Origin: TPA_inf: Saccharomyces
Taxonomy: Eukaryota
Direction of reading: 5' to 3'
DNA: 64,000 bases
Assembly: GCA_000146045.2 (NCBI GenBank)
Contig: BK006945.2
Location: 544,001 to 608,000, forward strand
A program made the position numbers and the translations under genes. Of this stretch, positions 1,699-61,432 are shown in pieces. Within the stretch, counting starts at the first letter, position 1. Each line of letters opens with the position of its first letter. The notes beneath the pieces were generated by a model that made no database searches, had not been told where the DNA came from, and was given only the letters and a program-made list of their open reading frames with translations.

Positions 1699-1966
1699 TC
1701 TGGATATGAAAAATATTAAAGCAGAGTACATTGCAAGTACAAATAAAAAATCTATAGAAGATAATACTGTATACTAGTGTAAGAGGAGCCTCAGAAAAAA
1801 ACAATATAATACATTAATATGTGCTGTTACGGTATAATTTAGCATATGATGACAATGTGGTGAATTACAGTTGTGTAACTTTTTTATATCACCCGGCATA
1901 TATACGCTCGTAGAATGCGATGTGAAAATTTTCTTTTTTTTTTTTTTTCAAAGTGAAATTTTTTTG

Positions 1967-1994
1967 AGTGATGAGATGGGAAATGAAAAATTTT
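1967..1994 (+). promoter_or_regulatory. PAC (GTGATGAGATG) plus RRPE (TGAAAAATTTT) ribosome-biogenesis promoter motifs upstream of NOP56
   Basis: PAC at 1967-1978 and RRPE at 1984-1994, about 100-130 bp upstream of the NOP56 ATG. A second PAC-like/RRPE-like pair lies at 1917-1933. Confidence 0.7.
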
Positions 1995-2096
1995 GTGCAA
2001 TTGCGTAGTGTCTACAGTTTTTTAAGTAGTTATTAAAAGTGTTTTGGAAGGTATATTTCTAGGAGAAGAAGCGTGCAGAACAGTATTTAGTGAAAG

Positions 2097-3611
2097 ATGG
2101 CTCCTATTGAATACCTACTGTTTGAAGAACCTACTGGTTACGCAGTTTTCAAGGTTAAGTTGCAACAAGATGACATTGGTTCAAGATTAAAAGAAGTTCA
2201 AGAGCAAATCAATGATTTTGGTGCTTTTACAAAGTTAATCGAACTTGTATCTTTCGCGCCATTCAAAGGTGCTGCTGAAGCCCTTGAAAATGCTAACGAC
2301 ATATCAGAAGGTTTAGTCTCTGAGAGTTTGAAAGCTATCTTGGATTTAAACTTACCAAAGGCTTCCTCGAAAAAGAAGAACATTACTTTGGCTATTTCCG
2401 ATAAAAACTTAGGTCCTTCTATTAAGGAAGAATTTCCATATGTTGATTGTATTTCAAATGAACTTGCTCAGGATTTGATTCGTGGTGTCAGATTACATGG
2501 CGAAAAATTATTCAAAGGTCTACAATCTGGTGACTTAGAAAGAGCCCAATTAGGTTTAGGTCACGCTTACTCCAGAGCTAAAGTGAAGTTCTCTGTTCAA
2601 AAGAACGACAATCACATCATTCAAGCTATTGCTTTATTAGATCAATTAGATAAAGATATCAACACTTTTGCTATGAGAGTTAAAGAGTGGTATGGCTGGC
2701 ATTTCCCCGAACTGGCTAAATTGGTACCAGACAACTACACTTTTGCCAAGTTGGTTCTTTTTATCAAGGACAAAGCTTCATTAAACGATGACTCCTTACA
2801 TGATTTGGCTGCTCTTTTGAATGAGGATTCGGGAATTGCACAAAGAGTCATTGACAATGCCCGTATCTCCATGGGACAAGATATATCAGAAACCGATATG
2901 GAAAATGTTTGTGTTTTCGCTCAGAGAGTCGCTTCCTTAGCTGATTACAGAAGACAATTATACGATTACTTATGCGAAAAAATGCACACTGTTGCACCAA
3001 ACTTATCAGAATTGATTGGTGAAGTGATTGGTGCTAGATTAATTTCTCACGCAGGTTCCCTAACTAATTTATCTAAGCAAGCAGCTTCAACGGTTCAAAT
3101 TCTTGGTGCTGAAAAGGCTTTGTTCAGAGCTTTAAAAACTAAAGGTAACACTCCAAAATACGGTTTGATTTACCACAGTGGTTTTATTTCTAAGGCCTCT
3201 GCCAAGAACAAGGGTCGTATTTCTAGATACTTGGCTAACAAATGTTCTATGGCCTCTAGAATTGACAATTACTCTGAGGAACCATCTAATGTTTTTGGTT
3301 CCGTACTAAAGAAACAAGTTGAGCAAAGATTAGAATTCTACAACACTGGTAAGCCAACTTTGAAGAATGAATTAGCCATTCAAGAAGCCATGGAACTTTA
3401 TAACAAAGATAAACCAGCTGCAGAAGTGGAAGAAACCAAGGAAAAGGAATCCTCAAAGAAGAGAAAATTAGAAGATGATGATGAAGAAAAGAAGGAAAAG
3501 AAAGAGAAAAAATCGAAGAAGGAAAAGAAAGAAAAGAAGGAAAAGAAGGACAAAAAGGAAAAGAAAGATAAAAAGGAAAAGAAGGATAAAAAGAAGAAAA
3601 GTAAGGATTAA
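2097..3611 (+). CDS. NOP56: Nucleolar box C/D snoRNP protein Nop56 (Nop5 domain) with a C-terminal KKE/D repeat tail
   Basis: 504 aa, starts MAPIEYLLFEEPTGYAVFKV, ATG confirmed at 2097. The lysine-rich EKKEKK tail is typical of Nop56/Sik1. Confidence 0.93.
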   Translation: MAPIEYLLFEEPTGYAVFKVKLQQDDIGSRLKEVQEQINDFGAFTKLIELVSFAPFKGAAEALENANDISEGLVSESLKAILDLNLPKASSKKKNITLAISDKNLGPSIKEEFPYVDCISNELAQDLIRGVRLHGEKLFKGLQSGDLERAQLGLGHAYSRAKVKFSVQKNDNHIIQAIALLDQLDKDINTFAMRVKEWYGWHFPELAKLVPDNYTFAKLVLFIKDKASLNDDSLHDLAALLNEDSGIAQRVIDNARISMGQDISETDMENVCVFAQRVASLADYRRQLYDYLCEKMHTVAPNLSELIGEVIGARLISHAGSLTNLSKQAASTVQILGAEKALFRALKTKGNTPKYGLIYHSGFISKASAKNKGRISRYLANKCSMASRIDNYSEEPSNVFGSVLKKQVEQRLEFYNTGKPTLKNELAIQEAMELYNKDKPAAEVEETKEKESSKKRKLEDDDEEKKEKKEKKSKKEKKEKKEKKDKKEKKDKKEKKDKKKKSKD

Positions 3612-3852
3612 AAGGAACAATGAATCGAAATAAAGTATATCCCATCTTTTTGTGTACTTTTCTTCCCTTTAAAGTTTTTCATATATATATATATTATCTT
3701 TTATTCCCTTCTAATATTCTTCTTTAGGATTTGGAAGCTGTATATTGTATATTTAGAAATATTATTAAATAAAAAAGTCATATGTTATTTTGAGCTTAAG
3801 TACCCTCTTATGCCTCTTTCACTCGCCATTACTGACATTCTGTGATCGCCAT

Positions 3853-4770
3853 TCATATATATAGGCCTGATTGTGCACCAATTGCCGCGCTATCACACCT
3901 CCATAAGCGATAGCATTCTTCAGAATATCTTGAAGGCTCAAAACCAAGCCATTGACCGCACAAATCAACTAAAGAACCCATGTCAGACAACGAAAGTTTC
4001 TCAAATCCATTAGGCCCCTCACTAGGCGCTACAAGACATTTAAATTTCAGTCCCTTACTGGGACCGACAATCAATTGTGTTAGCACACTTCCTATGAATC
4101 CCGTTATAAATTCTGGTGGTTGTAGTGTACATTCATTTTCCGTCATTACCTTCATGCTGGCGATTTTATCAGAGGTGCCAATTACTATTATATCAGGGGA
4201 GAACTGGGCTAACTGTGATATGATAGATCTACTTATCATGTTACCAAAAATCGGCGATATACTAATGAAATTCTCCTCCATAGAAAATAATAACGTCTTT
4301 CCAAATGAATAAATCGGGAAAGAAAAACCATATACTGTTTCATCGGCGGTGTCATTTTTTTGATCAGGATCAACCTCGTTTGGAAAGTTTTCGTCGTAAT
4401 TCCACGAGTGTTTACCTGAAGATTGGGGAAGACTTGGACTTTTCACCGTCAATGTAGTTTTAATTTCACCAATAGAGGTTAATTGAAGCAGATTTTTGGG
4501 GAATAATGGGTTCATTATCTTAGTAGTAATGACGGCTGTCGAATATTGAGGAACATCCAAGTCCTGAGGAAACTCAACTTTTGGAACCGGGCAGACTTCT
4601 AAAGATTGCAGGTTTTTTGAAATCTCTGGGAGATCTAGCAGATGTTTTGGTTCTGGTAAGTCATTCCATTGTTTAAACTTCAAAAAGAATCAAGTAACAT
4701 AAGTTAGTCAAACCACTCTACTCTAGCAAAATATGATGGGGAAAAAAGATTATTGTAACATACAAGCATC
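3853..4770 (-). CDS. PBA1: Proteasome assembly chaperone Pba1; spliced, exon 1 at 4770..4765 (ATG CTT), exon 2 at 4677..3853
   Basis: The ORF-track ORF begins at TTG (4683). An ATG lies at 4770 followed by GTATGT (5' splice site). A branch-like GACTAAC and an AG acceptor lie at 4679-4678. The spliced product is 276 aa (MLFKQWNDLPEPKHLL...), matching Pba1 length. Confidence 0.8.
4678..4764 (-). other. PBA1: Intron of PBA1 (87 nt; GTATGT...GACTAAC...AG)
   Basis: Splice signals read directly on the minus strand. Removing the intron restores an ATG-initiated 276-codon frame. Confidence 0.72.
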
Positions 4771-5011
4771 GCTATAAATGAAAATTTTACTGTAGTGCGA
4801 TGATATCTTGGTCGCTGTTTCTTATTATTTCGCCTGTTGCCACCTATTGCCACGCAACTTCTTAAATTGATTTCAATGAAGTCTGAAATTTTGATGCGAA
4901 AGAAAAAAAAAAGTAAAGGCAATAAAACTTCATCAAGTCAAACGTCATCTATAAATAATCCCACTTCAGAATTGAAAAAGACTACATTTGAGTGGAGGAA
5001 CAAAAGCAAAA

Positions 5012-5356
5012 ATGTCTGAATTAGGTGCCAAATATCAACAGTTGCAAAATGAGTTAGAAGAGTTTATTGTGGCCAGACAAAAATTAGAGACACAATTACA
5101 AGAAAACAAGATTGTAAATGAAGAGTTTGACCAATTAGAAGAAGATACACCTGTGTACAAATTGACAGGCAATGTCCTTTTACCAGTTGAACAAAGTGAG
5201 GCACGTACCAACGTGGACAAAAGATTAGAGTTCATCGAAACAGAAATTACAAGATGCGAAAAGAACATAAGGGACAAGCAGGAAGAACTAGAAAAGATGA
5301 GAAGCGAGCTAATTAAACTGAACAATACAGCAGCTTCCACTGGCCCAGGAAGGTAA
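5012..5356 (+). CDS. YKE2: Prefoldin subunit 6
   Basis: 114 aa from the ATG at 5012 (MSELGAKYQQLQNELEEFIVARQKLETQLQ). The ORF-track start at 4988 is TTG. Coiled-coil prefoldin beta subunit. Confidence 0.9.
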   Translation: MSELGAKYQQLQNELEEFIVARQKLETQLQENKIVNEEFDQLEEDTPVYKLTGNVLLPVEQSEARTNVDKRLEFIETEITRCEKNIRDKQEELEKMRSELIKLNNTAASTGPGR

Positions 5357-5510
5357 AACAAACTCACAGGTCCTCGGAAAGACAAGAAAGCGCACAGTAC
5401 CAATAAATCTGCCCAAAATAAAATTTTCTTTTATATACAATTATGTAACTTACAAACAAAATACCTACGCATTTCACTGTCCTAAACTTCAAATTGACAT
5501 GTAAGATTGC

Positions 5511-6293
5511 TTAACCCCTAACTAATTGAGATTTGATTAAATTTACCGTAGACATTAACGTATACCAGGCAAACTCTTCAGTATTGTTATAGTACTCACC
5601 CAAACGCATGACCCTATGTAATTTATCCTTTGCAAAAGTAAACGTTTCTTTGTAATTGTGGGATTTATCCTGAGCCATAAATAACTTTGAACCAATGTAG
5701 GTGCTCGAAACAGCCAATCTCTTAGCATACCATGCAGAATCATGGTGGTCCTTTTCGTTGGAAAAGTAAATCATATCATCGGACAATCTGTGTAGTTCAG
5801 GAATTGCAGTTTCAAAGAGAAAGGCGCTTGGAATAGCCAATTGTGACATTAGTTCCGACAAATGCCCACCGATTGGCTTGTCCATCTCCAATCTTTTTAA
5901 CAGCAAATGTTCTAATGAGGGTAGTTTGTATTGTGGAGTTACGTCAGGGTTGATTCCTTCAGTTAAACGATACCTTTTATCTACCAATTGAAACTTTATC
6001 AGTTCCATGACAGCGGTGGAAGAATGGAAAAACGAGGGCGAGTTGGGAGCACCTATTGAAGAGATCATGGAGGAAGGATAGCCGAGCTCATTTAAAGATT
6101 CAACAATGGATCTTTCAGAGAAACCGTGCTCGGGAACAAACTTTTGTAGAGCTAGTGACAATACTTTATACTGGGGTGATTCTTTTCCATAAGTTAAAGG
6201 TTTAATATGAATTGGTTTAACATGTTCGATAGGGTTCGAATGATATAAACGAAAGAATTTACAGCCCGTTCTGGCAGTATTGCGACAAAGCAT
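5511..6293 (-). CDS. COQ9: Ubiquinone biosynthesis protein Coq9 (mitochondrial)
   Basis: 260 aa, ATG at 6293. N-terminal mitochondrial-presequence-like MLCRNTARTG. Position between YKE2 and MSS51. Confidence 0.88.
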   Translation of the reverse strand: MLCRNTARTGCKFFRLYHSNPIEHVKPIHIKPLTYGKESPQYKVLSLALQKFVPEHGFSERSIVESLNELGYPSSMISSIGAPNSPSFFHSSTAVMELIKFQLVDKRYRLTEGINPDVTPQYKLPSLEHLLLKRLEMDKPIGGHLSELMSQLAIPSAFLFETAIPELHRLSDDMIYFSNEKDHHDSAWYAKRLAVSSTYIGSKLFMAQDKSHNYKETFTFAKDKLHRVMRLGEYYNNTEEFAWYTLMSTVNLIKSQLVRG

Positions 6294-8723: not shown

Positions 8724-9677
8724 TTATACTATGCTAAGAAAACTCTTTACCAAGAAGTAAAGAACCCAGATCGCGATAATAGAAAGCACCAGCAGCATGA
8801 CCGTGTGGAGTGCTCTTCTAGTAGCAGAATCCTTGTTGAACATCCATTCTTCGTACAAGTACGTAATACACTTGAAGCTGAACTTGCCCATTAACTCGCG
8901 ACGATTCAACTCTCCAATTTCTGCAACGATGTTGAAGTTCCAATCAAAAATGCCTTCTGCGACGCTAATGATCTGCAACTTTTGTGCTTCGGTCAATTCC
9001 GTCCTGGTGGCCAGCTCATAGTTCTTCTTGTATTCCCATTTCAAGCGTGTTTCTTCAGTGGGACCCAGATCGCTGAAGGTGAAGAAGTTTGTGCCCTTTT
9101 TGACCAGTTCCTTCTGTGATAGCTTCTCGAAGTTGGGGAAGAGCCCCAGTCTTCTGTACAAATTCGATCGTATTAGCTTGCCGCCGGCGAAAAGCGCCAA
9201 GTACAGAACGTGACAGTAAGAAAGAATGGTGCATGGCTCCTTGTGTATGTTTTCGTGGATGTTATTGATAAACTGCTGTAGTAGCGGTGGCTTCTGGAAC
9301 GTAGCCAGGAATTCGTTTAATGATTCTGTGCTTTTAAACGTGTTTGAGTATAGCAGCTTCAGGTCCTTATAGATCTGCGTAGATCTTCTAAAATCTTCGA
9401 GCCAAAACTGCTTCAGAATGGTCGAAGTTTGCAGCTCCTCCTCCGTTACGGGGTCATTCAGTAGGCGATCTATCTCTTGCTCGATGGCATCGAACACATA
9501 ATAGTACGCCAGAATACCCTGTCTGTATATAAAGCCATGTCTCATGGCGATGGCCATCTTTATGCCCATGAAGGTATTGATTTTATTGTGGGCATCTCTG
9601 GTTTGAAAGTTGATTCTGTTTGCTAGCGCCCCCACGTCAGTGGGTGAGGGTATGATTGTATTGCTACTGTCCTCCAT
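8724..9677 (-). CDS. HMX1: Heme oxygenase homolog (ER membrane, iron-regulated)
   Basis: 317 aa from the ATG at 9677 (MEDSSNTIIPSPTDVGALANRINFQTRDAH). C-terminal transmembrane anchor. An Aft1-type CACCC element lies upstream. Confidence 0.9.
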   Translation of the reverse strand: MEDSSNTIIPSPTDVGALANRINFQTRDAHNKINTFMGIKMAIAMRHGFIYRQGILAYYYVFDAIEQEIDRLLNDPVTEEELQTSTILKQFWLEDFRRSTQIYKDLKLLYSNTFKSTESLNEFLATFQKPPLLQQFINNIHENIHKEPCTILSYCHVLYLALFAGGKLIRSNLYRRLGLFPNFEKLSQKELVKKGTNFFTFSDLGPTEETRLKWEYKKNYELATRTELTEAQKLQIISVAEGIFDWNFNIVAEIGELNRRELMGKFSFKCITYLYEEWMFNKDSATRRALHTVMLLVLSIIAIWVLYFLVKSFLSIV

Positions 9678-9831
9678 TTTTGCGGTTATTTTATGTGTGT
9701 GTGTGTATATATGCTGTGTTATATTGTGCACTGTTAAATAGCTCCTCCTTAGACTAAGCAAGAGAGTATGAGGAGGTTGCTCTTATATACAAACACAAGA
9801 GGGCGAGAGGGGCACCTGGCCATTGCTCCAT

Positions 9832-9839
9832 CACACCCA
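9832..9839 (+). promoter_or_regulatory. Aft1-type CACCC element (CACACCCA) upstream of HMX1
   Basis: About 155 bp upstream of the HMX1 ATG (9677, minus strand). HMX1 is an iron-regulon gene. Confidence 0.5.
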
Positions 9840-10577
9840 ACTCAGGTGTAAATCGTCCTACTTATGAAGGTCATTAGCCCATGTTTGAAACCGTGTGTTA
9901 CATGGCTCAAATTCCACGGTCCGATAACGCCGACCCCGAGCAGGTGCAAATGGCCAGGCGGTATCGCCAATGATCCGTTTATCTAAAGATAGATAGATGG
10001 CCGAACGTGGACTGCCTCTATGGGTACAATAACATATGCACATGGCAACGGGTCTTGGTGCTCAATCGACGGGCACATACACCCTGACTTTCCCCATCAT
10101 ACGACGATGCTCTAGTAAACTTGCACCCGCACCTGTTAGATAAACAAGTGCGCCCAAGATCACAATACCGAAGGGGCGATATCACCACTCAGTATTCTAC
10201 AGTCGAGCATAGCGTAGTCTGGCAGTATCCCGCACGATCCATTGTATTGTTTGTCCAAACCGCATTTTATGTGTAACGATTAATCGTATATACATGGCCT
10301 ACAAGAAATTACCCTGCGGCGAAGGGTGAAAAAAAAAGTAGTGGAAACTAAAGAAAGAAGAGTTTAGTTACGGACCCTTTCAAGGATTGACACACTCCCA
10401 ATATTTTGCTACATTATTGACCTTTGTTGAAGGAGGCGTTCGTTTATTTAATTATTTTGTTCTGTTTTGCCTACAACTGCGAATACGCTCACATTCTAGT
10501 TTGACCTTCACAAATTCTTATCATCTTCTTTTGTTTATTTTGACACACCCCTATTAAGTGTATTTGTTTTGTAAGTA

Positions 10578-46561: not shown

Positions 46562-48043
46562 TTAATTGGAGGGATCAGTAAAGGTTTGATATATACGTGA
46601 CAAAATGTCCGGCAAGTTCCCTATGTTATCCTGATAGCAATATTTCCAATACTCAATCCAATGATCATCTGTTTCTGGATCTTTAGGTGAGTCAAAGCGC
46701 AGTTTCTGCTTCAATTTTGTTTTCATCTTGTCTATTATTATTCTGGGATGTCTGAATTGGTAAGTTCGGGGATGATAATCGTCCAGAGATTCTGAACAGT
46801 CATTATCTTCGGATATTTTTTCAGCAACAAGTAATTTCCCCTCCATAGCAGTCAACAGTACCTTAGGTAGTTGGTAGTCAGTTACTTCATCAGGATTGTC
46901 ACAAGCATCAATAATATTTTCGATGATACATAAGCATTCTATGGTCAATTTATCCATTTCAGATGATGCTTCGAATGTGTATTCATTATCTTGCATATAG
47001 TATAGTTTTAATACATAAAAAAACTGGATAACTTTAAATTGAACACCTGATGAAAGTAATAAGCCTTCCAGAATTTTATTCAAGCAGCATATAATCTGAG
47101 GGTCATTTTTAAGTTTGAAAGTTATTGACAGAATATTTTTTTGAATTGTTTCATTCATGTGGTTACTATCTACTAATAGTCCGATTCTGGGACCGAACAC
47201 ATCACATTCACACTCCCAAATTTTTCCTCTCAGAATGGCTAACATTTCTTCGATTTCTGCACAATACTGAAAAAACTGACTAAAAACAAAATTTTCATTG
47301 ACCTTTGAAAATTTAAGCGTTATCTTATCCATCGCATCGAAAGCGACGCAGTATAACGCCTCAATAACATCTACCTCGTCGAGTGACCAGTGCCATTGAA
47401 GTGACTTGGTCTCCTCATTTAAATCGAAGCCATGGGAATAATTAGGGTTTTGTCTTTTGATAAAATTTTTTAGATTATTGCCTACCAATGCTTCATTTTC
47501 TTTCAAATCAATTAGAAAACAGTGGCAACACAACATGGATATAAATAGTTCGCAAAGTTCATAAAAAGCTCCAATTTGCTCGTCTGCGATACTTGCAAAT
47601 AGTCTTGTCCTTTTTGAGTACGCAATGAATTGTAAGCACCAGCGAAAAGATTGAAATGCGAGGTTATAATTTTTATCTACATGACCAAATACTCCTTGAA
47701 ATAATTTTATATATAGTACCAGTTTTAATTTATTCATTGTCTCTGGATCGGCTTTATCTTTCTTCATTATCTTGATGATATGTTTTGGACCCATCGCAAG
47801 ATTAAAGTTTAAAATTTTGGCCAGCGCTTCTTTCAGAAGGTTATTGGTTTGAATCCTTAATGGTGAACCTTTTTTCATGATCGAAAGATTATAAAAAACT
47901 ACATGGTACGGAATATAAAGAGCCAAAAAGTCCCTTATCAAATCACCATTATATGCTTGTAAATTTAGGATAGTCTTCACAGCTTTTTTAAATTCTTTTC
48001 TTAAACTTTTTTTAAAAGTTTGATAGTCGACGTCTTTATTCAT
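46562..48043 (-). CDS. ADY4: Meiotic outer-plaque spindle pole body component (sporulation-specific)
   Basis: 493 aa, ATG at 48043. Position and length match ADY4. An MSE-like element lies immediately upstream. Confidence 0.8.
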   Translation of the reverse strand: MNKDVDYQTFKKSLRKEFKKAVKTILNLQAYNGDLIRDFLALYIPYHVVFYNLSIMKKGSPLRIQTNNLLKEALAKILNFNLAMGPKHIIKIMKKDKADPETMNKLKLVLYIKLFQGVFGHVDKNYNLAFQSFRWCLQFIAYSKRTRLFASIADEQIGAFYELCELFISMLCCHCFLIDLKENEALVGNNLKNFIKRQNPNYSHGFDLNEETKSLQWHWSLDEVDVIEALYCVAFDAMDKITLKFSKVNENFVFSQFFQYCAEIEEMLAILRGKIWECECDVFGPRIGLLVDSNHMNETIQKNILSITFKLKNDPQIICCLNKILEGLLLSSGVQFKVIQFFYVLKLYYMQDNEYTFEASSEMDKLTIECLCIIENIIDACDNPDEVTDYQLPKVLLTAMEGKLLVAEKISEDNDCSESLDDYHPRTYQFRHPRIIIDKMKTKLKQKLRFDSPKDPETDDHWIEYWKYCYQDNIGNLPDILSRIYQTFTDPSN

Positions 48044-48518: not shown

Positions 48519-48619
48519 TGAGAGCTAAGGGATTCGAACCCTTGCATCCGAAGATATCAGAGATTTTAGAGGTTAAACCCACCTAAATCTGACGCCTTAA
48601 ACCACTCGGCCAAACTCCC
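48519..48619 (-). tRNA. tL(UAG): tRNA-Leu(UAG) with a 19-nt intron
   Basis: Minus strand GGGAGTTTGGCCGAGTGGTTTAAGGCGTCAGATTTAGG[TGGGTTTAACCTCTAAAAT]CTCTGATATCTTCGGATGCAAGGGTTCGAATCCCTTAGCTCTCA. Type-II long variable arm. T6 Pol III terminator just downstream (48500-48515 on minus). Confidence 0.9.
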
Positions 48620-48704: not shown

Positions 48705-49035
48705 ATGAGAAATTGGTAAAGTTTGACATAATTGTTGGGATTCCATTGTTGATTAAGGCTATAATATTATGTATAAGAATAAACTAGAAGTTCTCCTCGA
48801 GGATATAGAAACTCTCAAATGGAATCGATATTTCTACACAATAATATTACGATTATTTCTCCTTCCGTTTTATATTTTTCATTATCTTATTACATTATCA
48901 ATCCTTCCATTTCAGCTTCCTTTAACTTCGGTTGCATCTTCTCATACCTTATGTCATCATCTAACTACCCGTATATGATAATATACGCGTAGTAAGACTA
49001 CTAGTTAATGACGATAGTTGATTTTTATTCCAACA
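48705..49035 (-). repeat. Solo delta LTR (Ty1/Ty2 family), about 331 bp, flanked by an ATTAA target-site duplication
   Basis: The minus strand reads TGTTGGAATAAAAATCAACTATCGTC ... AATGGAATCCCAACAATTATGTCAAACTTTACCAATTTCTCA. ATTAA at 48700-48704 and 49036-49040. 86 bp upstream of the tRNA-Leu 5' end. Confidence 0.85.
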
Positions 49036-49144
49036 ATTAAGTTAGCAAATGTGGGAAAGCATAAATTATTTGGGAAATGCATATATCTCCGCGATTTCCC
49101 TAGCTTAGGAGCTCTTTGGGATCGATATCATTTTTGTTGGAATA

Positions 49145-49478
49145 TGTTGGAATAGAAATCAACTATCATCTACTAACTAGTATTTACATTACTAGTATAT
49201 TATCATATACGGTGTTAGAAGATGACGCAAATGATGAGAAATAGTCATCTAAATTAGTGGAAGCTGAAACGCAAGGATTGATAATGTAATAGGATCAATG
49301 AATATAAACATATAAAATGATGATAATAATATTTATAGAATTGTGTAGAATTGCAGATTCCCTTTTATGGATTCCTAAATCCTTGAGGAGAACTTCTAGT
49401 ATATTCTGTATACCTAATATTATAGCCTTTATCAACAATGGAATCCCAACAATTATCTCAACATTCACATATTTCTCA
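49145..49478 (+). repeat. Ty1 5' LTR (delta), 334 bp; contains the TYA start codon
   Basis: Starts TGTTGG and ends TCTCA. Identical in length to the 3' LTR. Followed by a tRNAiMet-complementary PBS at 49479-49488. Confidence 0.93.
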
Positions 49479-50760
49479 TGGTAGCGCCTGTGCTTCGGTT
49501 ACTTCTAAGGAAGTCCACACAAATCAAGATCCGTTAGACGTTTCAGCTTCCAAAACAGAAGAATGTGAGAAGGCTTCCACTAAGGCTAACTCTCAACAGA
49601 CAACAACACCTGCTTCATCAGCTGTTCCAGAGAACCCCCATCATGCCTCTCCTCAACCTGCTTCAGTACCACCTCCACAGAATGGGCCGTACCCACAGCA
49701 GTGCATGATGACCCAAAACCAAGCCAATCCATCTGGTTGGTCATTTTACGGACACCCATCTATGATTCCGTATACACCTTATCAAATGTCGCCTATGTAC
49801 TTTCCACCTGGGCCACAATCACAGTTTCCGCAGTATCCATCATCAGTTGGAACGCCTCTGAGCACTCCATCACCTGAGTCAGGTAATACATTTACTGATT
49901 CATCCTCAGCGGACTCTGATATGACATCCACTAAAAAATATGTCAGACCACCACCAATGTTAACCTCACCTAATGACTTTCCAAATTGGGTTAAAACATA
50001 CATCAAATTTTTACAAAACTCGAATCTCGGTGGTATTATTCCGACAGTAAACGGAAAACCCGTACGTCAGATCACTGATGATGAACTCACCTTCTTGTAT
50101 AACACTTTTCAAATATTTGCTCCCTCTCAATTCCTACCTACCTGGGTCAAAGACATCCTATCCGTTGATTATACGGATATCATGAAAATTCTTTCCAAAA
50201 GTATTGAAAAAATGCAATCTGATACCCAAGAGGCAAACGACATTGTGACCCTGGCAAATTTGCAATATAATGGCAGTACACCTGCAGATGCATTTGAAAC
50301 AAAAGTCACAAACATTATCGACAGACTGAACAATAATGGCATTCATATCAATAACAAGGTCGCATGCCAATTAATTATGAGAGGTCTATCTGGCGAATAT
50401 AAATTTTTACGCTACACACGTCATCGACATCTAAATATGACAGTCGCTGAACTGTTCTTAGATATCCATGCTATTTATGAAGAACAACAGGGATCGAGAA
50501 ACAGCAAACCTAATTACAGGAGAAATCTGAGTGATGAGAAGAATGATTCTCGCAGCTATACGAATACAACCAAACCCAAAGTTATAGCTCGGAATCCTCA
50601 AAAAACAAATAATTCGAAATCGAAAACAGCCAGGGCTCACAATGTATCCACATCTAATAACTCTCCCAGCACGGACAACGATTCCATCAGTAAATCAACT
50701 ACTGAACCGATTCAATTGAACAATAAGCACGACCTTCACCTTAGGCCAGGAACTTACTGA
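49438..50760 (+). CDS. TYA: Ty1 Gag (TYA) capsid protein, 440 aa
   Basis: [39 protein letters not shown]... is Ty1-type Gag, not Ty2. ATG at 49438 inside the LTR. TGA at 50758. Confidence 0.93.
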
Positions 50761-53700
50761 ATCTACGGTAAATCACACTAATCATTCTGATGATGAACTC
50801 CCTGGACACCTCCTTCTCGATTCAGGAGCATCACGAACCCTTATAAGATCTGCTCATCACATACACTCAGCATCATCTAATCCTGACATAAACGTAGTTG
50901 ATGCTCAAAAAAGAAATATACCAATTAACGCTATTGGTGACCTACAATTTCACTTCCAGGACAACACCAAAACATCAATAAAGGTATTGCACACTCCTAA
51001 CATAGCCTATGACTTACTCAGTTTGAATGAATTGGCTGCAGTAGATATCACAGCATGCTTTACCAAAAACGTCTTAGAACGATCTGACGGCACTGTACTT
51101 GCACCTATCGTACAATATGGAGACTTTTACTGGGTATCTAAAAGGTACTTGCTTCCATCAAATATCTCCGTACCCACCATCAATAATGTCCATACAAGTG
51201 AAAGTACACGCAAATATCCTTATCCTTTCATTCATCGAATGCTTGCGCATGCCAATGCACAGACAATTCGATACTCACTTAAAAATAACACCATCACGTA
51301 TTTTAACGAATCAGATGTCGACTGGTCTAGTGCTATTGACTATCAATGTCCTGATTGTTTAATCGGCAAAAGCACCAAACACAGACATATCAAAGGTTCA
51401 CGACTAAAATACCAAAATTCATACGAACCCTTTCAATACCTACATACTGACATATTTGGTCCAGTTCACAACCTACCAAAAAGTGCACCATCCTATTTCA
51501 TCTCATTTACTGATGAGACAACAAAATTCCGTTGGGTTTATCCATTGCACGACCGTCGCGAGGACTCTATCCTCGATGTATTTACCACGATACTAGCTTT
51601 CATTAAAAACCAATTTCAGGCCAGTGTCTTGGTTATACAAATGGACCGTGGTTCTGAGTATACTAACAGAACTCTCCATAAATTCCTTGAAAAAAATGGT
51701 ATAACTCCATGCTATACAACCACAGCGGATTCCCGAGCACATGGAGTCGCTGAACGACTAAACCGTACCTTATTAGATGACTGCCGTACTCAACTGCAAT
51801 GTAGTGGTTTACCGAACCATTTATGGTTCTCTGCAATCGAATTTTCTACTATTGTGAGAAATTCACTAGCTTCACCTAAAAGCAAAAAATCTGCAAGCCA
51901 ACATGCTGGCTTGGCAGGACTTGATATCAGTACTTTGTTACCTTTCGGTCAACCTGTTATCGTCAATGATCACAACCCTAACTCCAAAATACATCCTCGT
52001 GGCATCCCAGGTTACGCTCTACATCCGTCTCGAAACTCTTATGGATATATCATCTATCTTCCATCCTTAAAGAAGACAGTAGATACAACTAACTATGTTA
52101 TTCTTCAGGGCAAGGAATCCAGATTAGATCAATTCAATTACGACGCACTCACTTTCGATGAAGACTTAAACCGTTTAACTGCTTCATATCATTCGTTCAT
52201 TGCGTCAAATGAGATCCAAGAATCCAATGATCTTAACATAGAATCTGACCATGACTTCCAATCTGACATTGAACTACATCCTGAGCAACCGAGAAATGTC
52301 CTTTCAAAAGCTGTGAGTCCAACCGATTCCACACCTCCGTCAACTCATACTGAAGATTCAAAACCTATATCTGAAATCAATCTTCGTGCACCCAGAGAAG
52401 TTGACCCCAACATATCTGAATCTAATATTCTTCCATCAAAGAAGAGATCTAGCACCCCCCAAATTTCCAATATCGAGAGTACCGGTTCGGGTGGTATGCA
52501 TAAATTAAATGTTCCTTTACTTGCTCCCATGTCCCAATCTAACACACATGAGTCGTCGCACGCCAGTAAATCTAAAGATTTCAGACACTCAGACTCGTAC
52601 AGTAACAATGAGACTAATCATACAAACGTACCAATATCCAGTACGGGTGGTACCAACAACAAAACTGTTCCGCAGATAAGCGACCAGGAGACTGAGAAAA
52701 GGATTATACACCGTTCACCTTCAATCGATGCTTCTCCACCGGAAAATAATTCATCGCACAATATTGTTCCTATCAAAACGCCAACTACTGTTTCTGAACA
52801 GAATACCGAGGAATCTATTATCGCTGATCTCCCACTTCCCGATCCGCCTCCAGAACCTCCTACCGAATTATCAGACTCCTTTAAAGAACTTCCACCGATC
52901 AATTCTCGTCAAACTAATTCCAGTTTGGGTGGTATTGGTGACTCTAATGCCTATACTACTATCAACAGTAAGAAAAGATCATTAGAAGATAATGAAACTG
53001 AAATTAAGGTATCACGAGACACATGGAATACTAAGAATATGCGTAGTTTAGAACCTCCGAGATCGAAGAAACGAATTCACCTGATTGCAGCTGCAAAAGC
53101 AGTAAAATCAATCAAACCAATACGAACAACCTTAAGATACGATGAGGCAATCACCTATAATAAAGATATTAAAGAAAAGGAAAAATATATCGAAGCATAC
53201 CACAAAGAAGTCAACCAACTATTGAAAATGAATACTTGGGACACTGACAAATATTATGACAGAAAAGAAATAGACCCTAAAAGAGTAATAAACTCAATGT
53301 TTATCTTCAACAAGAAACGTGACGGAACTCATAAAGCTAGATTTGTTGCAAGAGGTGACATTCAGCATCCTGATACGTACGATACAGGTATGCAATCCAA
53401 CACTGTACATCATTATGCGTTGATGACATCCCTGTCACTTGCATTAGACAATAACTACTATATTACACAATTAGACATATCTTCGGCATATTTGTATGCA
53501 GACATCAAAGAAGAATTATACATAAGACCTCCACCACATTTAGGAATGAATGATAAGTTGATACGTTTGAAGAAATCACATTATGGATTGAAACAAAGTG
53601 GAGCGAACTGGTACGAAACTATCAAATCATACCTGATAAAACAGTGTGGTATGGAAGAAGTTCGTGGATGGTCATGCGTATTTAAGAATAGTCAAGTAAC

Positions 53701-54706
53701 AATTTGCTTATTCGTTGATGATATGATATTGTTCAGCAAAGACTTAAATGCAAATAAGAAAATCATAACAACACTCAAGAAACAATACGATACAAAGATA
53801 ATAAATCTGGGTGAAAGTGATAACGAAATTCAGTACGACATACTTGGCTTAGAAATCAAATATCAAAGAGGTAAATACATGAAATTAGGTATGGAAAACT
53901 CATTAACTGAGAAAATACCCAAATTAAACGTACCTTTGAATCCAAAAGGAAGAAAACTTAGCGCTCCAGGTCAACCAGGTCTTTATATAGACCAGGATGA
54001 ACTAGAAATAGATGAAGATGAATACAAAGAGAAGGTACATGAAATGCAAAAGTTGATTGGTCTAGCTTCATATGTTGGATATAAATTTAGATTTGACTTA
54101 CTATACTACATCAACACACTTGCTCAACATATACTATTCCCCTCTAGGCAAGTTTTAGACATGACATATGAGTTAATACAATTCATGTGGGACACTAGAG
54201 ATAAACAACTGATATGGCACAAAAACAAACCTACCGAGCCAGATAATAAACTAGTCGCAATAAGCGATGCTTCATATGGTAACCAACCATATTACAAGTC
54301 ACAAATTGGTAACATTTTCCTACTCAACGGAAAAGTGATTGGAGGAAAGTCGACAAAGGCTTCGTTAACATGCACTTCAACTACAGAAGCAGAAATACAC
54401 GCAGTCAGTGAAGCTATTCCGCTATTGAATAACCTCAGTCACCTTGTGCAAGAACTTAACAAGAAACCAATTATTAAAGGCTTACTTACTGATAGTAGAT
54501 CAACGATCAGTATAATTAAGTCTACAAATGAAGAGAAATTTAGAAACAGATTTTTTGGCACAAAGGCAATGAGACTTAGAGATGAAGTATCAGGTAATAA
54601 TCTATACGTATACTACATCGAGACCAAGAAGAACATTGCTGATGTGATGACAAAACCTCTTCCGATAAAAACATTTAAACTATTAACTAACAAATGGATT
54701 CATTAG
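49438..54706 (+). CDS. TYB: Ty1 Gag-Pol (TYA-TYB) polyprotein made by a +1 ribosomal frameshift at 50740-50746; Pol = protease, integrase, reverse transcriptase-RNase H
   Basis: The +1 frame is open from 50744 to the TAG at 54706. The joined length is 5268 nt, about 1755 aa. Pol carries the protease D(S/T)G, integrase HHCC zinc-finger/DDE core and RT YVDDM motifs, seen as ...DSGASRTL..., HRMLAHAN, and FVDDMILF. Confidence 0.9.
50740..50746 (+). other. Ty1 programmed +1 ribosomal frameshift heptamer CTT-AGG-C
   Basis: The exact canonical Ty1 shifty sequence CUUAGGC sits in the TYA zero frame (Leu-Arg of ...HLRPGTY). Confidence 0.9.
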
Positions 54707-54728
54707 ATCTATTACATTATGGGTGGTA

Positions 54729-55062
54729 TGTTGGAATAGAAATCAACTATCATCTACTAACTAGTATTTACATTACTAGTATATTATCATATACGGTGTT
54801 AGAAGATGACGCAAATGATGAGAAATAGTCATCTAAATTAGTGGAAGCTGAAACGCAAGGATTGATAATGTAATAGGATCAATGAATATAAACATATAAA
54901 ATGATGATAATAATATTTATAGAATTGTGTAGAATTGCAGATTCCCTTTTATGGATTCCTAAATCCTTGAGGAGAACTTCTAGTATATTCTGTATACCTA
55001 ATATTATAGCCTTTATCAACAATGGAATCCCAACAATTATCTCAACATTCACCCATTTCTCA
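54729..55062 (+). repeat. Ty1 3' LTR (delta), 334 bp
   Basis: Preceded by the polypurine tract TGGGTGGTA (54720-54728). Ends ...CACCCATTTCTCA, followed by the GAATA TSD. Confidence 0.93.
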
Positions 55063-55224
55063 GAATAGATGTGAACTCTTTGGTTTTCGGTCAGACTAGA
55101 CGTCAGTAAATAGTTTGAAAGCGAGAATAAAAAATAATTGTAATGGATAATGAAATGCCGTTAATTGGTAGTATTAATGAAGAATGAATATCCATCTTTT
55201 CATGCAATATAAGAGAAAAATATA

Positions 55225-55540
55225 AAACTGCTGAGATACGGACAAAAATCACCTATGTACAAGTATTTATTTTATCATATACGGCGTAAGAAGATGACGT
55301 CAAAAATTGAGGAACAGTCATCGAATTTAATGGAAGCTGAAATGCAATGATCGATAATGTAATAGGATAATGAGTAACAACAATTAAATTGAAGAAGAAA
55401 AAATAGTGATGCTCTGTAGAGATGTCATTTCCCTTCAATGTTGCTATATTCTCCTGGCACATTAACGTATGCCCACTATTAGTGCCTTTAACAATAGAAT
55501 CCCAACAATTATTCAATTATTCACCCATAAAATCCACCTA
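55225..55540 (+). repeat. Degenerate delta-like solo LTR remnant
   Basis: TATCATATACGGCGTAAGAAGATGACGTC...GGAAGCTGAAATGCAATGATCGATAATGTAATAGGATAATGA...AATAGAATCCCAACAATTATTCAATTATTCACCCATAAAATCCA aligns with delta consensus blocks but has many substitutions and indels. Boundaries are approximate. Confidence 0.6.
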
Positions 55541-55559
55541 TTTTTCAAGAAAGCATTAG

Positions 55560-55960
55560 ATTTGCTCATTATTATTTATTATTAACATAAAAGTGCCTTT
55601 GGTAGTTACTATGTATTTAGTGTGGTGACCCGTATTCCTCATATATATAAGTAGCTACCACATTATGTTCAATCAATATATCTTTAACTCAGCTCAGCAT
55701 TGTCTGAATTGCTCGCTTAAGTTTTTATCCTGTGATTAGTGCATTTACACATAAACGTATACCGGGTGTACCTCAATATACTATGTAAACATTTAAATTG
55801 TTACCATAACAACTCATGTTATTATTAATGATCACTTGACAACATATAAAAACGAAAGAAGAAATAATAATACTACTATGTATAAGTATCCATTTCCTTT
55901 TGTGGATTCCTCAAAATGGCCAGTATATTCGGAAGTAACATAATGTAGTTATTCATCGAT
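55560..55960. repeat. Unclassified AT-rich LTR-like remnant (possibly tau/other Ty LTR); non-coding
   Basis: Contains TATATATAAG (TATA-like) and a block TTTTGTGGATTCCTCAAAATGG resembling the delta segment TTTTATGGATTCCTAAATCC. No clean TG...CA termini identified. Lies between Ty remnants and ECM22. Confidence 0.3.
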
Positions 55961-56018: not shown

Positions 56019-58463
56019 TTACATAAAAGCTGAAAAGTTTGTAGTGGTCATAGAAGGTAACCCACCTCCTAAGAAATCCAGCATCATATGCATACCACCA
56101 CCTCCACTATACTCATCAACATCCTGTGGTAAAACCTGTGATACGCTATCCAAGAACCACACTTTGTCCTTTATTTCTGTGGTATAACCTCTCAATAATG
56201 TATAGTAAGACCTCATTATTCTCATGGCCCCTAGGTCGCCTGTCATTAATAATGCTAAAAAAGTCCTATCCAAAAGAGCAGGAAATGAGAAGACTCTCAA
56301 CATAAAATCTAATTGATTTTTTTCGCGATGCAGTTTGTCCAAATATGCTAAAGTTATCAAGTACGGTGAATCAATTTCTACGGGATATAAATCTGCTATA
56401 CTTTCGTCAAAGCATACGAGTTCCGATATCGTATTATTGTTATTTCCATCACCATTATTGCTATTGTCATTATCATTATTATGATTACTTTGGTTGATTA
56501 CAGCTTCACCCAAATCACTCAAGTCAACAGAAATTAAGTTATAAAACTTGGATGTCTCCGACAGGGGCCATACAGCAGTTAGTATAGTTACGGCGCCTTT
56601 AACATGGAAAATCCATGCCGTTGGTGAGCTGCTTGAAGCATTTGCCAATGAATCTAGGATTAATATTAGAGCACTAGCCACCAAAGCATCTGTGTTATCA
56701 TCTGAAATTTCGAGCACAGCCTCTCTTAACAGTCTCAACGCTTCTAAACGATGACTAGACACGTAGTTATCCAAGCCGGCTTCAGTTCTGGACAAATGAG
56801 TGGCGCTAAAAGCCAAAATTGTATGCATCAAGAAGGGAAAATGAAAAGCCAAATCCGGAATATAAGTGCTCCATACTTCAGGACCAGAAATGCCTGCTTC
56901 GGTTATGGTATGCCATACGTCAGTACAATAGTGATGAAAAAGTTTTAGATCTATCAAATTCAAATTTGATTTTCTAGACAGCCCGACTAATTCAGGGACT
57001 AGTCGTGAGGCTGATGAAGCGTTTGAATGGGGAGAAGATTGTTGTTGAGTGTGAGAATTTGATGAACGTGGAGACAATGCCTCCGAGTTGGATAACAGGT
57101 CACCCATTGGGGACGTCTTCAAAGTAGGAGAATTTCCCAAAGCGGTCCTGTTGTCCGGTATAGATAACAATGACTTTGTAGAGGTTACATTGGATACTCC
57201 CGTTGAAGGGGACGCAATGTTTTGATCTATGGAAGGTTTGGACAACGTGTGTGGGGGACTGATTGTGAGACCGGTATTGTCGATTATCAAGTTTTTGTTA
57301 TGAGATAGTATATCAGAAGCAGTAACTTTATTTTCGTTTCCGTTAAGGGGGTTATTGCCCGAATTAACAGCATCCGTCTTAGTATTATCCAATGGGTTCT
57401 TCGTAAATTGCTTGTTTTTGTCCTCCTGTTCCTGTTGCATATTTGCGAGTGCCTCCTCTGCTGTGCTAACTTTGATTGCTCTGTTATTAGATGTAGCAAA
57501 CTTTCCGAGGCCAAATAACTCTTGAAACTCAGAGGCCATTCCATTTGCAGCACCGTATGGAAATAATGTATTGAAGCTCTTCATATTGAAGTTCAAGCCC
57601 ATCTTGTTCAATTGCGCTAGCTGGTCGAAGGGAATATTGCTGAAGGGGGACTGTGTTCCTTGTTGTTGTGGAATTTGCTGATTTTGTTGTTGAAGTTGTG
57701 GCTGCTGCAATCCATTCGTCACCGAATTTAGCCTACCAGGCGAGAGTAAGCCGTTAAGGCTACTTGATAAATTCATGGCCGTTGATTGAAAACTAGGTGT
57801 TATCGGTATACTCAATGGCGAATTCCCTGGTAGGGCCATGTTTGGGTGGTTGTTGTTTATCATTGAACTGGGAGCTGTTTGTGTTATATTATTATGCGCT
57901 TCAGCTCCATTTGCACTGCTGTTGGTACTGTTACTGGTGTTATTCACTAAACTCGCTAATAGGTGCGGTAACAAAAGATTCTCCATATTATTGGATACGG
58001 ATGGAGGAACGCTATTAGGGGAATTGCTTTGTTCATCAGTACCAACATGTGGCAACAGTTGCTGCTGTAACTGAACTTGCTGTTGTTGACGAAATTGCTG
58101 TTCTTGTTGATGATGAAGTTGCTGTTGTTGTTGTTGTAACATGATGGCATTGTCACTCAGATTTTTCTTGCCTACCCTATCGTGGACCGCTGATGCAAAT
58201 TTTGACGACGAAGAATCTTTTCTTCTTCTTGGCTGAATAGGGCTGTAAACACAGTCCAATTTCATGTTTGTACATTTCTTGCAAAATGGTTTGCCTTCAT
58301 CACATTTTACTCTTCTTCTTTTACAATTGTCGCAACCGGTCTTGGACTTGTTATGAAACTTCCGTTTCCCTGTCGAAGTCTTGCTCACTTTCTTGCCCCC
58401 AACCTCAATCAGTTCAGCATCCTTCTCTCTTTCTTGTCCAGCATTCCCATCATCGGATGTCAT
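56019..58463 (-). CDS. ECM22: Zn2Cys6 sterol-regulatory transcription factor
   Basis: 814 aa, ATG at 58463. Zn(II)2Cys6 cluster [29 protein letters not shown]-rich and N-rich low-complexity regions. Confidence 0.9.
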
Positions 58464-61299: not shown

Positions 61300-61432
61300 T
61301 GCTCGAGGTGGGGATTGAACCCACGACGGTCGCGTTGCTTTTAAAGGCCTGTTTGAAAGGTCTTTGGCACAGAAACTTCGGAAACCGAATGTTGCTATAA
61401 GCACGAAGCTCTAACCACTGAGCTACACGAGC
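61300..61432 (-). tRNA. tI(UAU): tRNA-Ile(UAU) with a 60-nt intron
   Basis: Minus strand GCTCGTGTAGCTCAGTGGTTAGAGCTTCGTGCTTATA[60-nt intron]ACGCGACCGTCGTGGGTTCAATCCCCACCTCGAGCA. T-run Pol III terminator downstream. Confidence 0.9.

Follow-up and report, generated by a model that had tools for sequence, protein, structure and literature searches.

The 64,000-nucleotide stretch of DNA analysed here (hereafter the window) carries on its forward strand, at positions 49145-55062, an LTR retrotransposon of 5,918 bp, which is almost certainly YLRWTy1-3, the element on chromosome XII of Saccharomyces cerevisiae S288C that comprises the genes YLR227W-A and YLR227W-B. On this reading it is a coding-intact, full-length element of the Ty1/copia type, a member of the Ty1/Ty2 hybrid subfamily already known, that inserted recently and is polymorphic, and the dinucleotide difference between its LTRs is most likely due to a post-insertion exchange. 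The element was identified as YLRWTy1-3 because its Gag-Pol fusion protein of 1,755 amino acids is an exact match with UniProt P0C2I6 / NP_058171.1, "Transposon Ty1-LR3". The neighbouring ORFs are those of S288C ADY4, ECM22, YLR225C and CDC42, and the element is placed between ADY4 and ECM22. YLRWTy1-3 is already annotated and its hybrid class already published; both are thus known rather than new. In the literature it serves as the "representative" and the "most expressed" Ty1 (PMC11258251, citing Morillon 2002; PMC9467533).

Structural signals and coding capacity

The 5' LTR (49145-49478, forward strand; TGTTGG...TCTCA; 334 bp) holds the Gag start codon at 49438, and the 3' LTR (54729-55062, forward strand; 334 bp) is the same save for CC at 55053-55054. 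They are direct repeats with TG...CA termini. The sequence-only reading had taken them to be identical; a base-by-base alignment gave 332/334 identities, the two adjacent differences being AT in the 5' LTR (49469-49470, forward strand) vs CC in the 3' LTR, at LTR positions 325-326. The AT falls within Gag codon 11, which is His in YLRWTy1-3. Copies of GAATA flank the element at 49140-49144 and 55063-55067 (forward strand) and represent a true target-site duplication, since 12 other assemblies (L001-L010, L016 and L017) carry the site uninterrupted with a single GAATA. The primer-binding site TGGTAGCGCC (49479-49488, forward strand), which we take to be complementary to the 3' end of the initiator tRNA-Met, lies directly 3' of U5, and the polypurine tract TGGGTGGTA (54720-54728, forward strand) adjoins the 3' LTR; a further tract, GGGTGGTA, at 52927-52934 (forward strand) is likely to be the central polypurine tract. 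The LTRs, the 5-bp duplication with its precise empty site and the adjoining primer-binding site and polypurine tract are those of a Ty1/copia LTR retrotransposon.

The Gag (TYA) ORF (49438-50760, forward strand) encodes 440 amino acids, matches Pfam PF01021 with an E-value of 1.8e-232 and is identical to the Ty1 Gag that S288C annotation assigns to Ty1-JR1/LR3. It also has the two methionines, M249 and M259, with which the p22 constructs in the PDB begin. The +1 frameshift heptamer CTT-AGG-C (50740-50746, forward strand, in the Gag frame) lies inside the 38-nt Gag/Pol overlap and occurs only once in the window. Its CTT is Gag codon 435, and joining this codon to GGC at 50744 gives the unbroken 1,755-residue protein. 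The heptamer does not discriminate Ty1 from Ty2, because it is common to Ty2. The Pol (TYB) frame, which overlaps Gag, extends over 50720-54706 (forward strand) and is open for 1,328 codons (50720-54703) up to a stop at 54704-54706; the length of 1239 codons given previously covers only the part between the first in-frame TTG and the stop. The Gag and Pol reading frames of the element are free of internal stops and frameshifts. Thus, of the features reported from the letters alone, the boundaries of a full-length element with 334-bp LTRs, both copies of GAATA, the primer-binding site, the polypurine tract, the Gag ORF and the heptamer were each located and stand.

The domains of Pol follow the order protease, integrase, reverse transcriptase (RT) and RNase H, with the integrase ahead of RT as in copia. 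Pfam matches on Gag-Pol comprise TYA, Pol_BBD (459-533), rve (663-763), SH3_retrovirus (829-890) and RVT_2 (1281-1487). The catalytic residues of protease, integrase and RT, which the sequence-only reading had proposed to check, are all present, as are those of RNase H. These include D461 (DSG) in the protease and D671, D736 and E772 (D,D35E) in the integrase, which spans 51185-53089 on the forward strand (Gag-Pol 583-1217, 635 amino acids), matches the full-length Ty1 integrase PDB 7z0h_W with 1,401.7 bits and also carries the HHCC zinc-binding site, as HRMLAH (from 599) and CPDC (from 637), and KKR at 1178 and 1210. The RT-RNase H region (53090-54703, forward strand; Gag-Pol 1218-1755) contains the RT residues D1346 and D1427-D1428 (FVDD, of the YXDD type) and, C-terminal to RT, the RNase H residues D1610, E1652 and D1685; the catalytic residues of both enzymes do not vary when the protein is aligned with two copia-type polyproteins (25-29% identity). 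The RNase H fold received no confirmation from Pfam, a PDB sequence search or AlphaFold. Judged from its sequence, YLRWTy1-3 is a full-length Ty1-family element with its cis signals, ORFs and catalytic residues all intact.

YLRWTy1-3 Gag-Pol shows nine amino-acid states that none of 10 other Ty1 Gag-Pol proteins has. Eight substitutions within 28 nt (52360-52387, forward strand) change five residues at Gag-Pol 976-982 (PISEINL vs RVSKTNI), in the C-terminal portion of the integrase region, past the Pfam rve and SH3_retrovirus matches. This patch is missing in the same 10 proteins and in L011, L014 and L024, and is found in L015. At residue 1219, the second past the integrase/RT boundary as set by the PDB integrase match, there is A in place of the V of other copies (V1219A). 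The nine private states, including V1219A and the integrase patch, were counted against the reading of the element given at the outset.

In the established Ty1 life cycle, RNA polymerase II starts transcription where U3 meets R in the 5' LTR and continues into the R of the 3' LTR. Translation of Gag begins at the ATG within the 5' LTR; ribosomes that slip by +1 at CUU-AGG-C make Gag-Pol, from which the protease frees protease, integrase and RT-RNase H within virus-like particles. Minus-strand DNA is primed by initiator tRNA-Met at the primer-binding site and the plus strand by the polypurine tract, and the integrase inserts the cDNA upstream of RNA polymerase III genes, creating a 5-bp duplication. 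With its parts intact, YLRWTy1-3 would be expected to follow the same cycle.

Mosaic of Ty1 and Ty2 sequences

The hybrid structure was scored by sliding-window identity and diagnostic sites against one Ty2 locus (L013) and one Ty1' locus (L014). Within LTR positions 17-234, 54/55 diagnostic sites are of the Ty2 type, and the sequence is of the Ty1 type from position 240 on, which places the U3/R break at LTR 235-239; the structure is the same in both LTRs. In the 5' LTR, U3 (LTR 1-234; 49145-49378, forward strand) is thus Ty2-like and R-U5 (LTR 240-334; 49384-49478) Ty1-like, and U3 shows 95-99% identity to the Ty2 LTR vs about 80-84% to Ty1-type LTRs. A further junction, from Ty1 to Ty2, lies in Pol at 53666-53685 on the forward strand (element 4522-4541; Gag-Pol 1410-1416, GWSCVFK), shortly before RT motif C. 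It is followed by a Ty2-derived segment (53686-54962, forward strand; element 4542-5818) comprising RT from motif C, RNase H, the polypurine tract and U3 of the 3' LTR, with 94-100% identity to the Ty2 locus vs 80-91% to the Ty1' locus; scored from RT motif C to RNase H (element 4542-5560), the ranges are 91-100% for Ty2 and 80-91% for Ty1'. The Ty2-derived stretch of 3' Pol amounts to ~1.0 kb and is interrupted at approximately element 4704-4838 (window 53848-53982) by a patch resembling Ty1; its history therefore involves more than one simple crossover. The Ty1-like portions of the element are R-U5, Gag, the protease, the integrase and the N-terminal part of RT.

Both the Gag and the hypervariable Pol region between integrase and RT are of the Ty1 type, as expected of Ty1 rather than Ty2, and a non-hybrid Ty1 would have neither this U3 nor this 3' TYB end (RT motif C to RNase H). 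The name Ty1 given to the element previously is incomplete, leaving out the Ty2 origin of both U3s and of ~1.0 kb of 3' Pol. Jordan and McDonald (1998, 1999) reportedly described hybrids between Ty1 and Ty2 in S. cerevisiae S288C. The combination of a Ty2 U3 and 3' TYB with Ty1 R-U5, Gag and 5' Pol agrees with the definition of the Ty1/2 hybrids (PMC4022208, PMC3511429), to which 18/32 S288C Ty1 elements belong, with 240 bp of Ty2 U3 and a segment of 3' TYB, and which as a class are transcribed and transpose at especially high rates in S288C (PMC4022208). YLRWTy1-3 is, by comparison of sequences, a member of this hybrid class, its Ty2 origin being based on one Ty2 reference locus and the literature.

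The mosaic may have arisen in two steps. A Ty2 RNA packaged in the same particle would first have received Ty1 minus-strand strong-stop DNA at its 3' R; synthesis would then have returned to Ty1 RNA as template at element 4522-4541. The order of the segments (Ty2 U3, Ty1 from R-U5 to the N-terminal part of RT, Ty2 from the C-terminal part of RT to U3) fits such a transfer and switch.

Insertion polymorphism and the origin of the LTR difference

The empty site is precise in the 12 assemblies mentioned above, and two other assemblies, L015 (GCA_947370305.1) and L018 (GCA_002571405.2), have it occupied. One of these two is presumably CEN.PK, recognised from its SCEN_ locus tags only. The insertion is strain-variable, as had been suggested from the sequence alone, and its absence from 12 assemblies marks it as young and polymorphic. 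Youth had been argued from the identity of the LTRs; this argument fails, because the LTRs differ by a dinucleotide, and it is the empty sites that uphold the conclusion. YLRWTy1-3 landed 525 bp upstream of the 5' end of an intron-containing tRNA-Leu(UAG) gene (48519-48619, reverse strand; missed by ARAGORN), in divergent orientation. This gene is the RNA polymerase III gene that defines an integration hot spot. The region of the insertion was already strewn with LTR relics.

A freshly transposed copy is expected to have two identical LTRs, and YLRWTy1-3 departs from this at the AT/CC dinucleotide alone. The same states, AT in the 5' LTR and CC in the 3' LTR, recur in both independent assemblies with the insertion, both alleles are known in other Ty LTRs, and codon 11 is H, P, Q or N in other Ty1 Gag proteins. 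As judged from the few Ty copies compared, the difference most likely reflects an exchange with another Ty copy after insertion (ectopic or cDNA-mediated gene conversion) and not age-related decay. Clock-like decay is contradicted by the nearest empty haplotype, which differs at only 2/8,000 nt of the flanks.

An old, inactive copy, in which LTR mismatches measure the time since insertion, would account for the two mismatches as well as for the nine copy-specific amino-acid changes and the clustered 8-nt patch; with 12 assemblies empty and a haplotype so close in its flanks, however, a clock predicts about 0.08 LTR-LTR differences, the mismatches sit side by side and other Ty copies already carry each of the two states, and the element is free of stops and frameshifts and keeps every catalytic residue. 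Such an age is very improbable, and the rule proposed with the sequence-only reading, that several LTR mismatches indicate an old, inactive copy, is misleading here. Equally improbable is a pure canonical Ty1 whose transposition is too recent for its LTRs to have diverged. The intact ORFs and cis signals, the polymorphic insertion and the name Ty1 in the databases would all accord with it, but the LTRs do differ at two adjacent bases, and the Ty2-like U3 and the Ty2-like element 4542-5818 rule out a pure Ty1.

The dinucleotide could, less probably than by later exchange, have been present at birth, if a virus-like particle had contained two different Ty RNAs and plus-strand strong-stop transfer between molecules had produced unlike U5s. 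Both alleles circulate among near-identical Ty1 copies, and the hybrid structure points to heterozygous particles and template switching in the ancestry of the element. No direct evidence for such an origin was found, though; standard reverse transcription takes both U5 copies from one minus-strand strong-stop DNA, and with the LTRs otherwise identical the two templates would need to differ at these two bases only, so that this origin is considered unlikely. A sequence error, for which nothing speaks beyond its general possibility, is refuted by the recurrence of AT/CC in both occupied assemblies and is the least credible explanation of all. Exchange after insertion is thus the preferred reading.

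Comparison with known Ty elements

Relative to canonical Ty1 as generally described (e.g. Ty1-H3; Pseudoviridae, Ty1/copia), YLRWTy1-3 has in common the Gag type, the CTTAGGC +1 frameshift, the primer-binding site and polypurine tract, the protease-integrase-RT-RNase H order, the 5-bp duplication, integration upstream of RNA polymerase III genes, the 5,918-bp length and the products of 440 and 1,755 amino acids; it differs in that both U3s and the region from RT motif C to RNase H are Ty2-derived. It resembles Ty2 (L013) in U3 and in element 4542-5818, whereas its Gag is 55-62% identical at the DNA level, its hypervariable Pol (element 3150-3750) 35-54% identical and its R-U5 of the Ty1 type. 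Its identity to Ty1' (L014) in Pol element 1650-4500 is mostly 93-100%, dropping to 85% at element 3601-3750, and amounts to 85-97% across the hypervariable Pol (element 3150-3750); Ty1' differs in its divergent Gag (82-91%, element 450-1650) and Ty1-type U3, whereas YLRWTy1-3 has the canonical Ty1 Gag.

The published Ty1/Ty2 hybrids (Carr et al. 2012, PMC3511429; Bleykasten-Grosshans et al. 2013, PMC4022208) have the same architecture as YLRWTy1-3, in which Ty2 contributed ~240 bp of U3 together with the 3' end of TYB, and Ty1 the remainder, and its breakpoints (LTR 235-239; element 4522-4541) agree with their description. YLRWTy1-3 is of the "long" type, with >300 bp of Ty2 TYB, and does not differ from these hybrids in kind, adding to their structure the Ty1-like patch at ~element 4704-4838 and the private 8-nt integrase patch.

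Identity and coding capacity of the element

The retrotransposon between ADY4 and ECM22 spans 5,918 bp (49145-55062, +). Its 1,755-residue Gag-Pol fusion is identical throughout to the "Transposon Ty1-LR3 Gag-Pol polyprotein" (UniProt P0C2I6 / NP_058171.1), the source of which is S288C chromosome XII (1,078,177 bp), and the flanking ORFs are likewise identical to Ady4 (46562-48043, -), Ecm22 (56019-58463, -), YLR225C and Cdc42; the element is therefore YLRWTy1-3. It is real, intact and recently inserted. The 334-bp LTRs (49145-49478 and 54729-55062, both +) are direct repeats reading TGTTGG...TCTCA, and GAATA stands on both sides of the element, at 49140-49144 and 55063-55067. The Ty1 primer-binding site TGGTAGCGCC, which we take to be complementary to the 3' end of initiator tRNA-Met, lies directly 3' of the 5' LTR, and the polypurine tract (PPT) TGGGTGGTA directly 5' of the 3' LTR. 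The Gag ORF (49438-50760, +; 440 codons) starts inside the 5' LTR and carries the only CTTAGGC heptamer of the 64-kb window (50740-50746), which the Gag frame reads as CTT-AGG-C (codons 435-436). These coordinates bear out the boundaries, LTR length, GAATA duplication, primer-binding site, PPT, Gag ORF and heptamer listed in the sequence-only reading. The Pol frame of 1239 codons proposed there was a mechanical ORF counted from the first in-frame TTG; the true +1 frame opens at 50720, runs for 1,328 codons up to its stop (54704-54706, +) and overlaps Gag by 38 nt. Joining Gag codon 435 to the GGC at 50744 yields the uninterrupted 1,755-aa Gag-Pol.

The PPT core GGGTGGTA recurs at three internal positions (52489-52496, 52645-52652 and 52927-52934), all in the integrase-coding region, and these copies contribute to a window total of six matches where 0.87 are expected. 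Of the three, 52927-52934 probably represents the central PPT; the other two sit in repeated coding motifs.

Pfam domains were found in the copia order, namely TYA (E 1.8e-232), Pol beta-barrel (protease), integrase core, retroviral SH3-like and RVT_2. Gag-Pol 583-1217 matches the Ty1 integrase chain 7z0h_W of the PDB over its full 635 residues, and Gag 249-359 matches the Ty1 p22/CA structures. Inspection of the protease, integrase and reverse transcriptase catalytic residues, a check suggested with the original reading, found all of them present: D461 in the DSG motif of the protease; D671, D736 and E772 of the integrase, together with its zinc-binding motifs (HRMLAH from 599, CPDC from 637); and D1346 and D1427-D1428 (in FVDD) of the reverse transcriptase. 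D1610, E1652 and D1685 of RNase H are present as well. In an alignment with two copia-type polyproteins of only 25-29% identity, the reverse transcriptase and RNase H residues show no variation. The RNase H domain had no match in Pfam (E up to 10) or in the PDB sequence search, and its AlphaFold model, built on a 3-sequence alignment, was unusable (pLDDT 40).

Comparison with 10 other Ty1 Gag-Pol proteins identified nine residues private to YLRWTy1-3, none of which touches the catalytic residues. These are R820S, five substitutions in a patch at 976-982 (PISEINL vs RVSKTNI in the others), N1056, L1136P and V1219A, the last being the second residue past the integrase/reverse transcriptase boundary as placed by the PDB integrase match. 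At the DNA level the patch comprises 8 substitutions in 28 nt (52360-52387), all in frame, and is shared only with the occupied locus of GCA_947370305.1 (L015), being unlike both other Ty1 copies and Ty2. The occupied locus of the CEN.PK assembly GCA_002571405.2 (L018) carries consensus bases at these positions, through either real conversion or assembly polishing.

Insertion polymorphism and the ADY4-ECM22 spacer

Orthologous loci were collected with the Ecm22 and Ady4 proteins of the window as queries. The strain comparison for presence or absence of the insertion, also suggested earlier, revealed an empty site in twelve assemblies (L001-L010, L016, L017) and an occupied one in two (L015, L018). 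All twelve empty alleles read ...TTTTTGTTGGAATAGATGTGAAC... with one GAATA, and this precise empty site proves the target-site duplication and an integrase-type insertion. Their spacer measures 2,053 bp, except in L008 and L009, where extra solo LTRs extend it to 2.39-2.73 kb. L015 and L018 carry the insertion at the same site with identical flanks; the sole difference of L015 from the window is one homopolymer indel, and L018 shows long-read-type indels and consensus-like bases in the hypervariable region.

Two intron-containing tRNA genes were detected in the window with Rfam, at 48519-48619 (-, 49.8 bits) and 61300-61432 (-, 48.5 bits); the absence of any tRNA gene from the ARAGORN output is an artefact of the introns. 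The former gene has a UAG anticodon loop and a long variable arm and is thus tRNA-Leu(UAG). YLRWTy1-3 lies 525 bp upstream of it in divergent orientation, a placement that fits the known preference of Ty1 for insertion upstream of Pol III genes. tRNA-Leu(UAG) is also the tRNA whose slippage on CUU underlies Ty1 frameshifting; its adjacency to the element is a coincidence, with no functional link to that role.

The spacer is a classical hot spot with debris of earlier insertions. A full-length Ty1-type solo delta (48705-49035, -), 86.5% identical to the LTR of Ty1', lies 85 bp upstream of the tRNA-Leu gene and was found in all strains examined. On the other side of the element, a relic at about 55137-55846 (-) consists of a repeat of about 370 bp that matches the Ty1' reference locus (L014:5506-5854) and is split by a degenerate solo delta at about 55230-55560 (+), of about 72% identity to Ty LTRs. 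By its resemblance to tau and its match to the L014 repeat, we take the relic to be a Ty4 tau LTR; the delta within it records two older nested insertions. A small delta-like fragment follows at 55841-55911. L008 (13283-13606 and 14158-14481) and L009 (13218-13539) have independent solo LTRs of Ty2 type that share about 96% identity with the YLRWTy1-3 LTR, at the window equivalents of about 48720, 55181-55186 and 55245-55250; each of these LTRs has its own short duplication, which confirms that the hot spot is hit recurrently. In a further locus (L019; GCA_033956085.1, CP135955.1), ECM22 and ADY4 are just 684 bp apart (9317-10001). The tRNA-Leu gene, the Ty1 and every LTR relic are missing there, and 21 kb contain six loxPsym sites; this is evidently a Sc2.0 synthetic chromosome XII, and the whole hot spot is therefore dispensable in that design.

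Non-identical LTRs and the target site

The LTRs had been read as identical by eye. Base comparison revealed two adjacent differences at LTR positions 325-326, AT in the 5' LTR (49469-49470) and CC in the 3' LTR (55053-55054). Both L015 and L018 carry the same difference, which rules out a sequencing error. The 8 kb that flank the element in the window differ from the empty haplotype of L010/L017 by only 2 substitutions, which under a clock bounds the expected LTR-LTR differences at about 0.08; decay with age therefore does not account for the dinucleotide. Each state also occurs in other copies: AT in the 5' LTR of Ty2 and in both LTRs of a Ty1 locus with identical Gag (L011), CC in the LTRs of Ty1' and in one solo LTR of L009. 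The same bases are spanned by Gag codon 11, for which Ty1 copies have H, P, Q or N. A post-insertion exchange with a different Ty copy explains the difference most economically; on mechanistic grounds the 5' LTR/Gag side is the easier one to convert, as homology continues beyond it in both directions. That the difference was present from birth, through intermolecular plus-strand transfer, is unlikely. The case illustrates why LTR-LTR mismatches in Ty elements give no simple age clock. Copies commonly exchange sequence, and there is an empty haplotype that is nearly identical.

In all twelve empty alleles the target (window 49135-49144 plus 55068-55069) reads TGTTGGAATAGA. It is identical to the LTR's own first 12 nt, in exact register with the GAATA duplication, and consequently the occupied allele contains a tandem TGTTGGAATA-TGTTGGAATA. 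A plausible origin is the stump of an older delta; over the 200 nt that follow the insertion site, local alignment for a degenerate LTR scored no better than shuffles. Should the target not be such a stump, an integrase/intasome preference for targets resembling the LTR terminus, or a cDNA-mediated conversion that overwrote a resident element, might be considered, and these we regard as very improbable. Three other insertions were mapped in the spacer (in L008 and L009), and no mimic of the LTR terminus was seen by eye beside the L009 insertion (55245-55250). Overwriting of a resident element, if true, would also explain the discordant U5 dinucleotide.

Ty1/Ty2 hybrid structure and relation to described elements

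Reference DNA was obtained through the only two close matches among four in a Gag-Pol homology search, a Ty2 gene model (L013) and a Ty1' gene model (L014), which sufficed for the purpose. The Ty1 locus with identical Gag (L011) came from GCA_002571405.2, taken as CEN.PK from its SCEN_ locus tags. A search with another Ty1 Gag (P0017) returned only collapsed metagenome fragments, among them L024, a mosaic of limited use as a reference.

The LTR of YLRWTy1-3 shares 95-96% identity with Ty2 LTRs but only 84-87% with LTRs of Ty1 type. The mosaic was mapped with sliding windows and diagnostic sites, element positions being counted from 49145. U3 (LTR 1-234) is closest to Ty2 at 54 of 55 diagnostic sites; the segment from LTR 240 to element 4521 (R-U5, Gag, protease, integrase, hypervariable region and N-terminal reverse transcriptase) is closest to Ty1; and element 4542-5818 (reverse transcriptase motif C onwards, RNase H, PPT and the U3 of the 3' LTR) is again closest to Ty2 (94-100%), with a Ty1-like patch at about 4704-4838. 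The junction in Pol falls at window 53666-53685 (Gag-Pol 1410-1416, GWSCVFK), just before FVDD, and the reverse transcriptase itself is therefore chimeric. An intermolecular minus-strand strong-stop transfer from Ty1 RNA to Ty2 RNA would yield the break at the U3/R border.

A Ty1 on chromosome X of GCA_002571405.2 (L011, 6704-12622 and onward) has a Gag identical to that of YLRWTy1-3 and discordant LTRs. Its 5' LTR is Ty1-type (87% identical to the YLRWTy1-3 LTR) and its 3' LTR is 100% identical to the YLRWTy1-3 5' LTR, with a second Ty1 Gag beginning inside; it is a tandem pair with a common LTR and illustrates the free recombination among such copies.

The outline in the sequence-only reading, an intact and recent element, stands; the re-analysis corrects it on LTR identity and Pol length, and the Ty2 contribution had been missed. 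The label "Ty1" covers here an element recombined from Ty1 and Ty2, whose reverse transcriptase is chimeric and whose promoter region is that of Ty2, and YLRWTy1-3 belongs to the published Ty1/2 hybrid class. According to PMC4022208 and PMC3511429 (which cite Jordan & McDonald 1998, 1999), 18 of the 32 S288C "Ty1" elements have the TYB end and the 240-bp U3 of Ty2. These papers explain the hybrids by recombination in heterozygous particles at the reverse-transcription stage, and they give the class high transcription and transposition rates. YLRWTy1-3 is a recurrent partner in Ty-mediated rearrangements (PMC3102749), serves as a "representative" Ty1, and is named the most expressed Ty1 in the same literature (PMC11258251, which cites Morillon et al. 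2002; PMC9467533). As a discovery it thus carries small weight, being an element already annotated in the reference yeast genome, of a hybrid class described in 1998-1999, and in experimental use as a representative Ty1.
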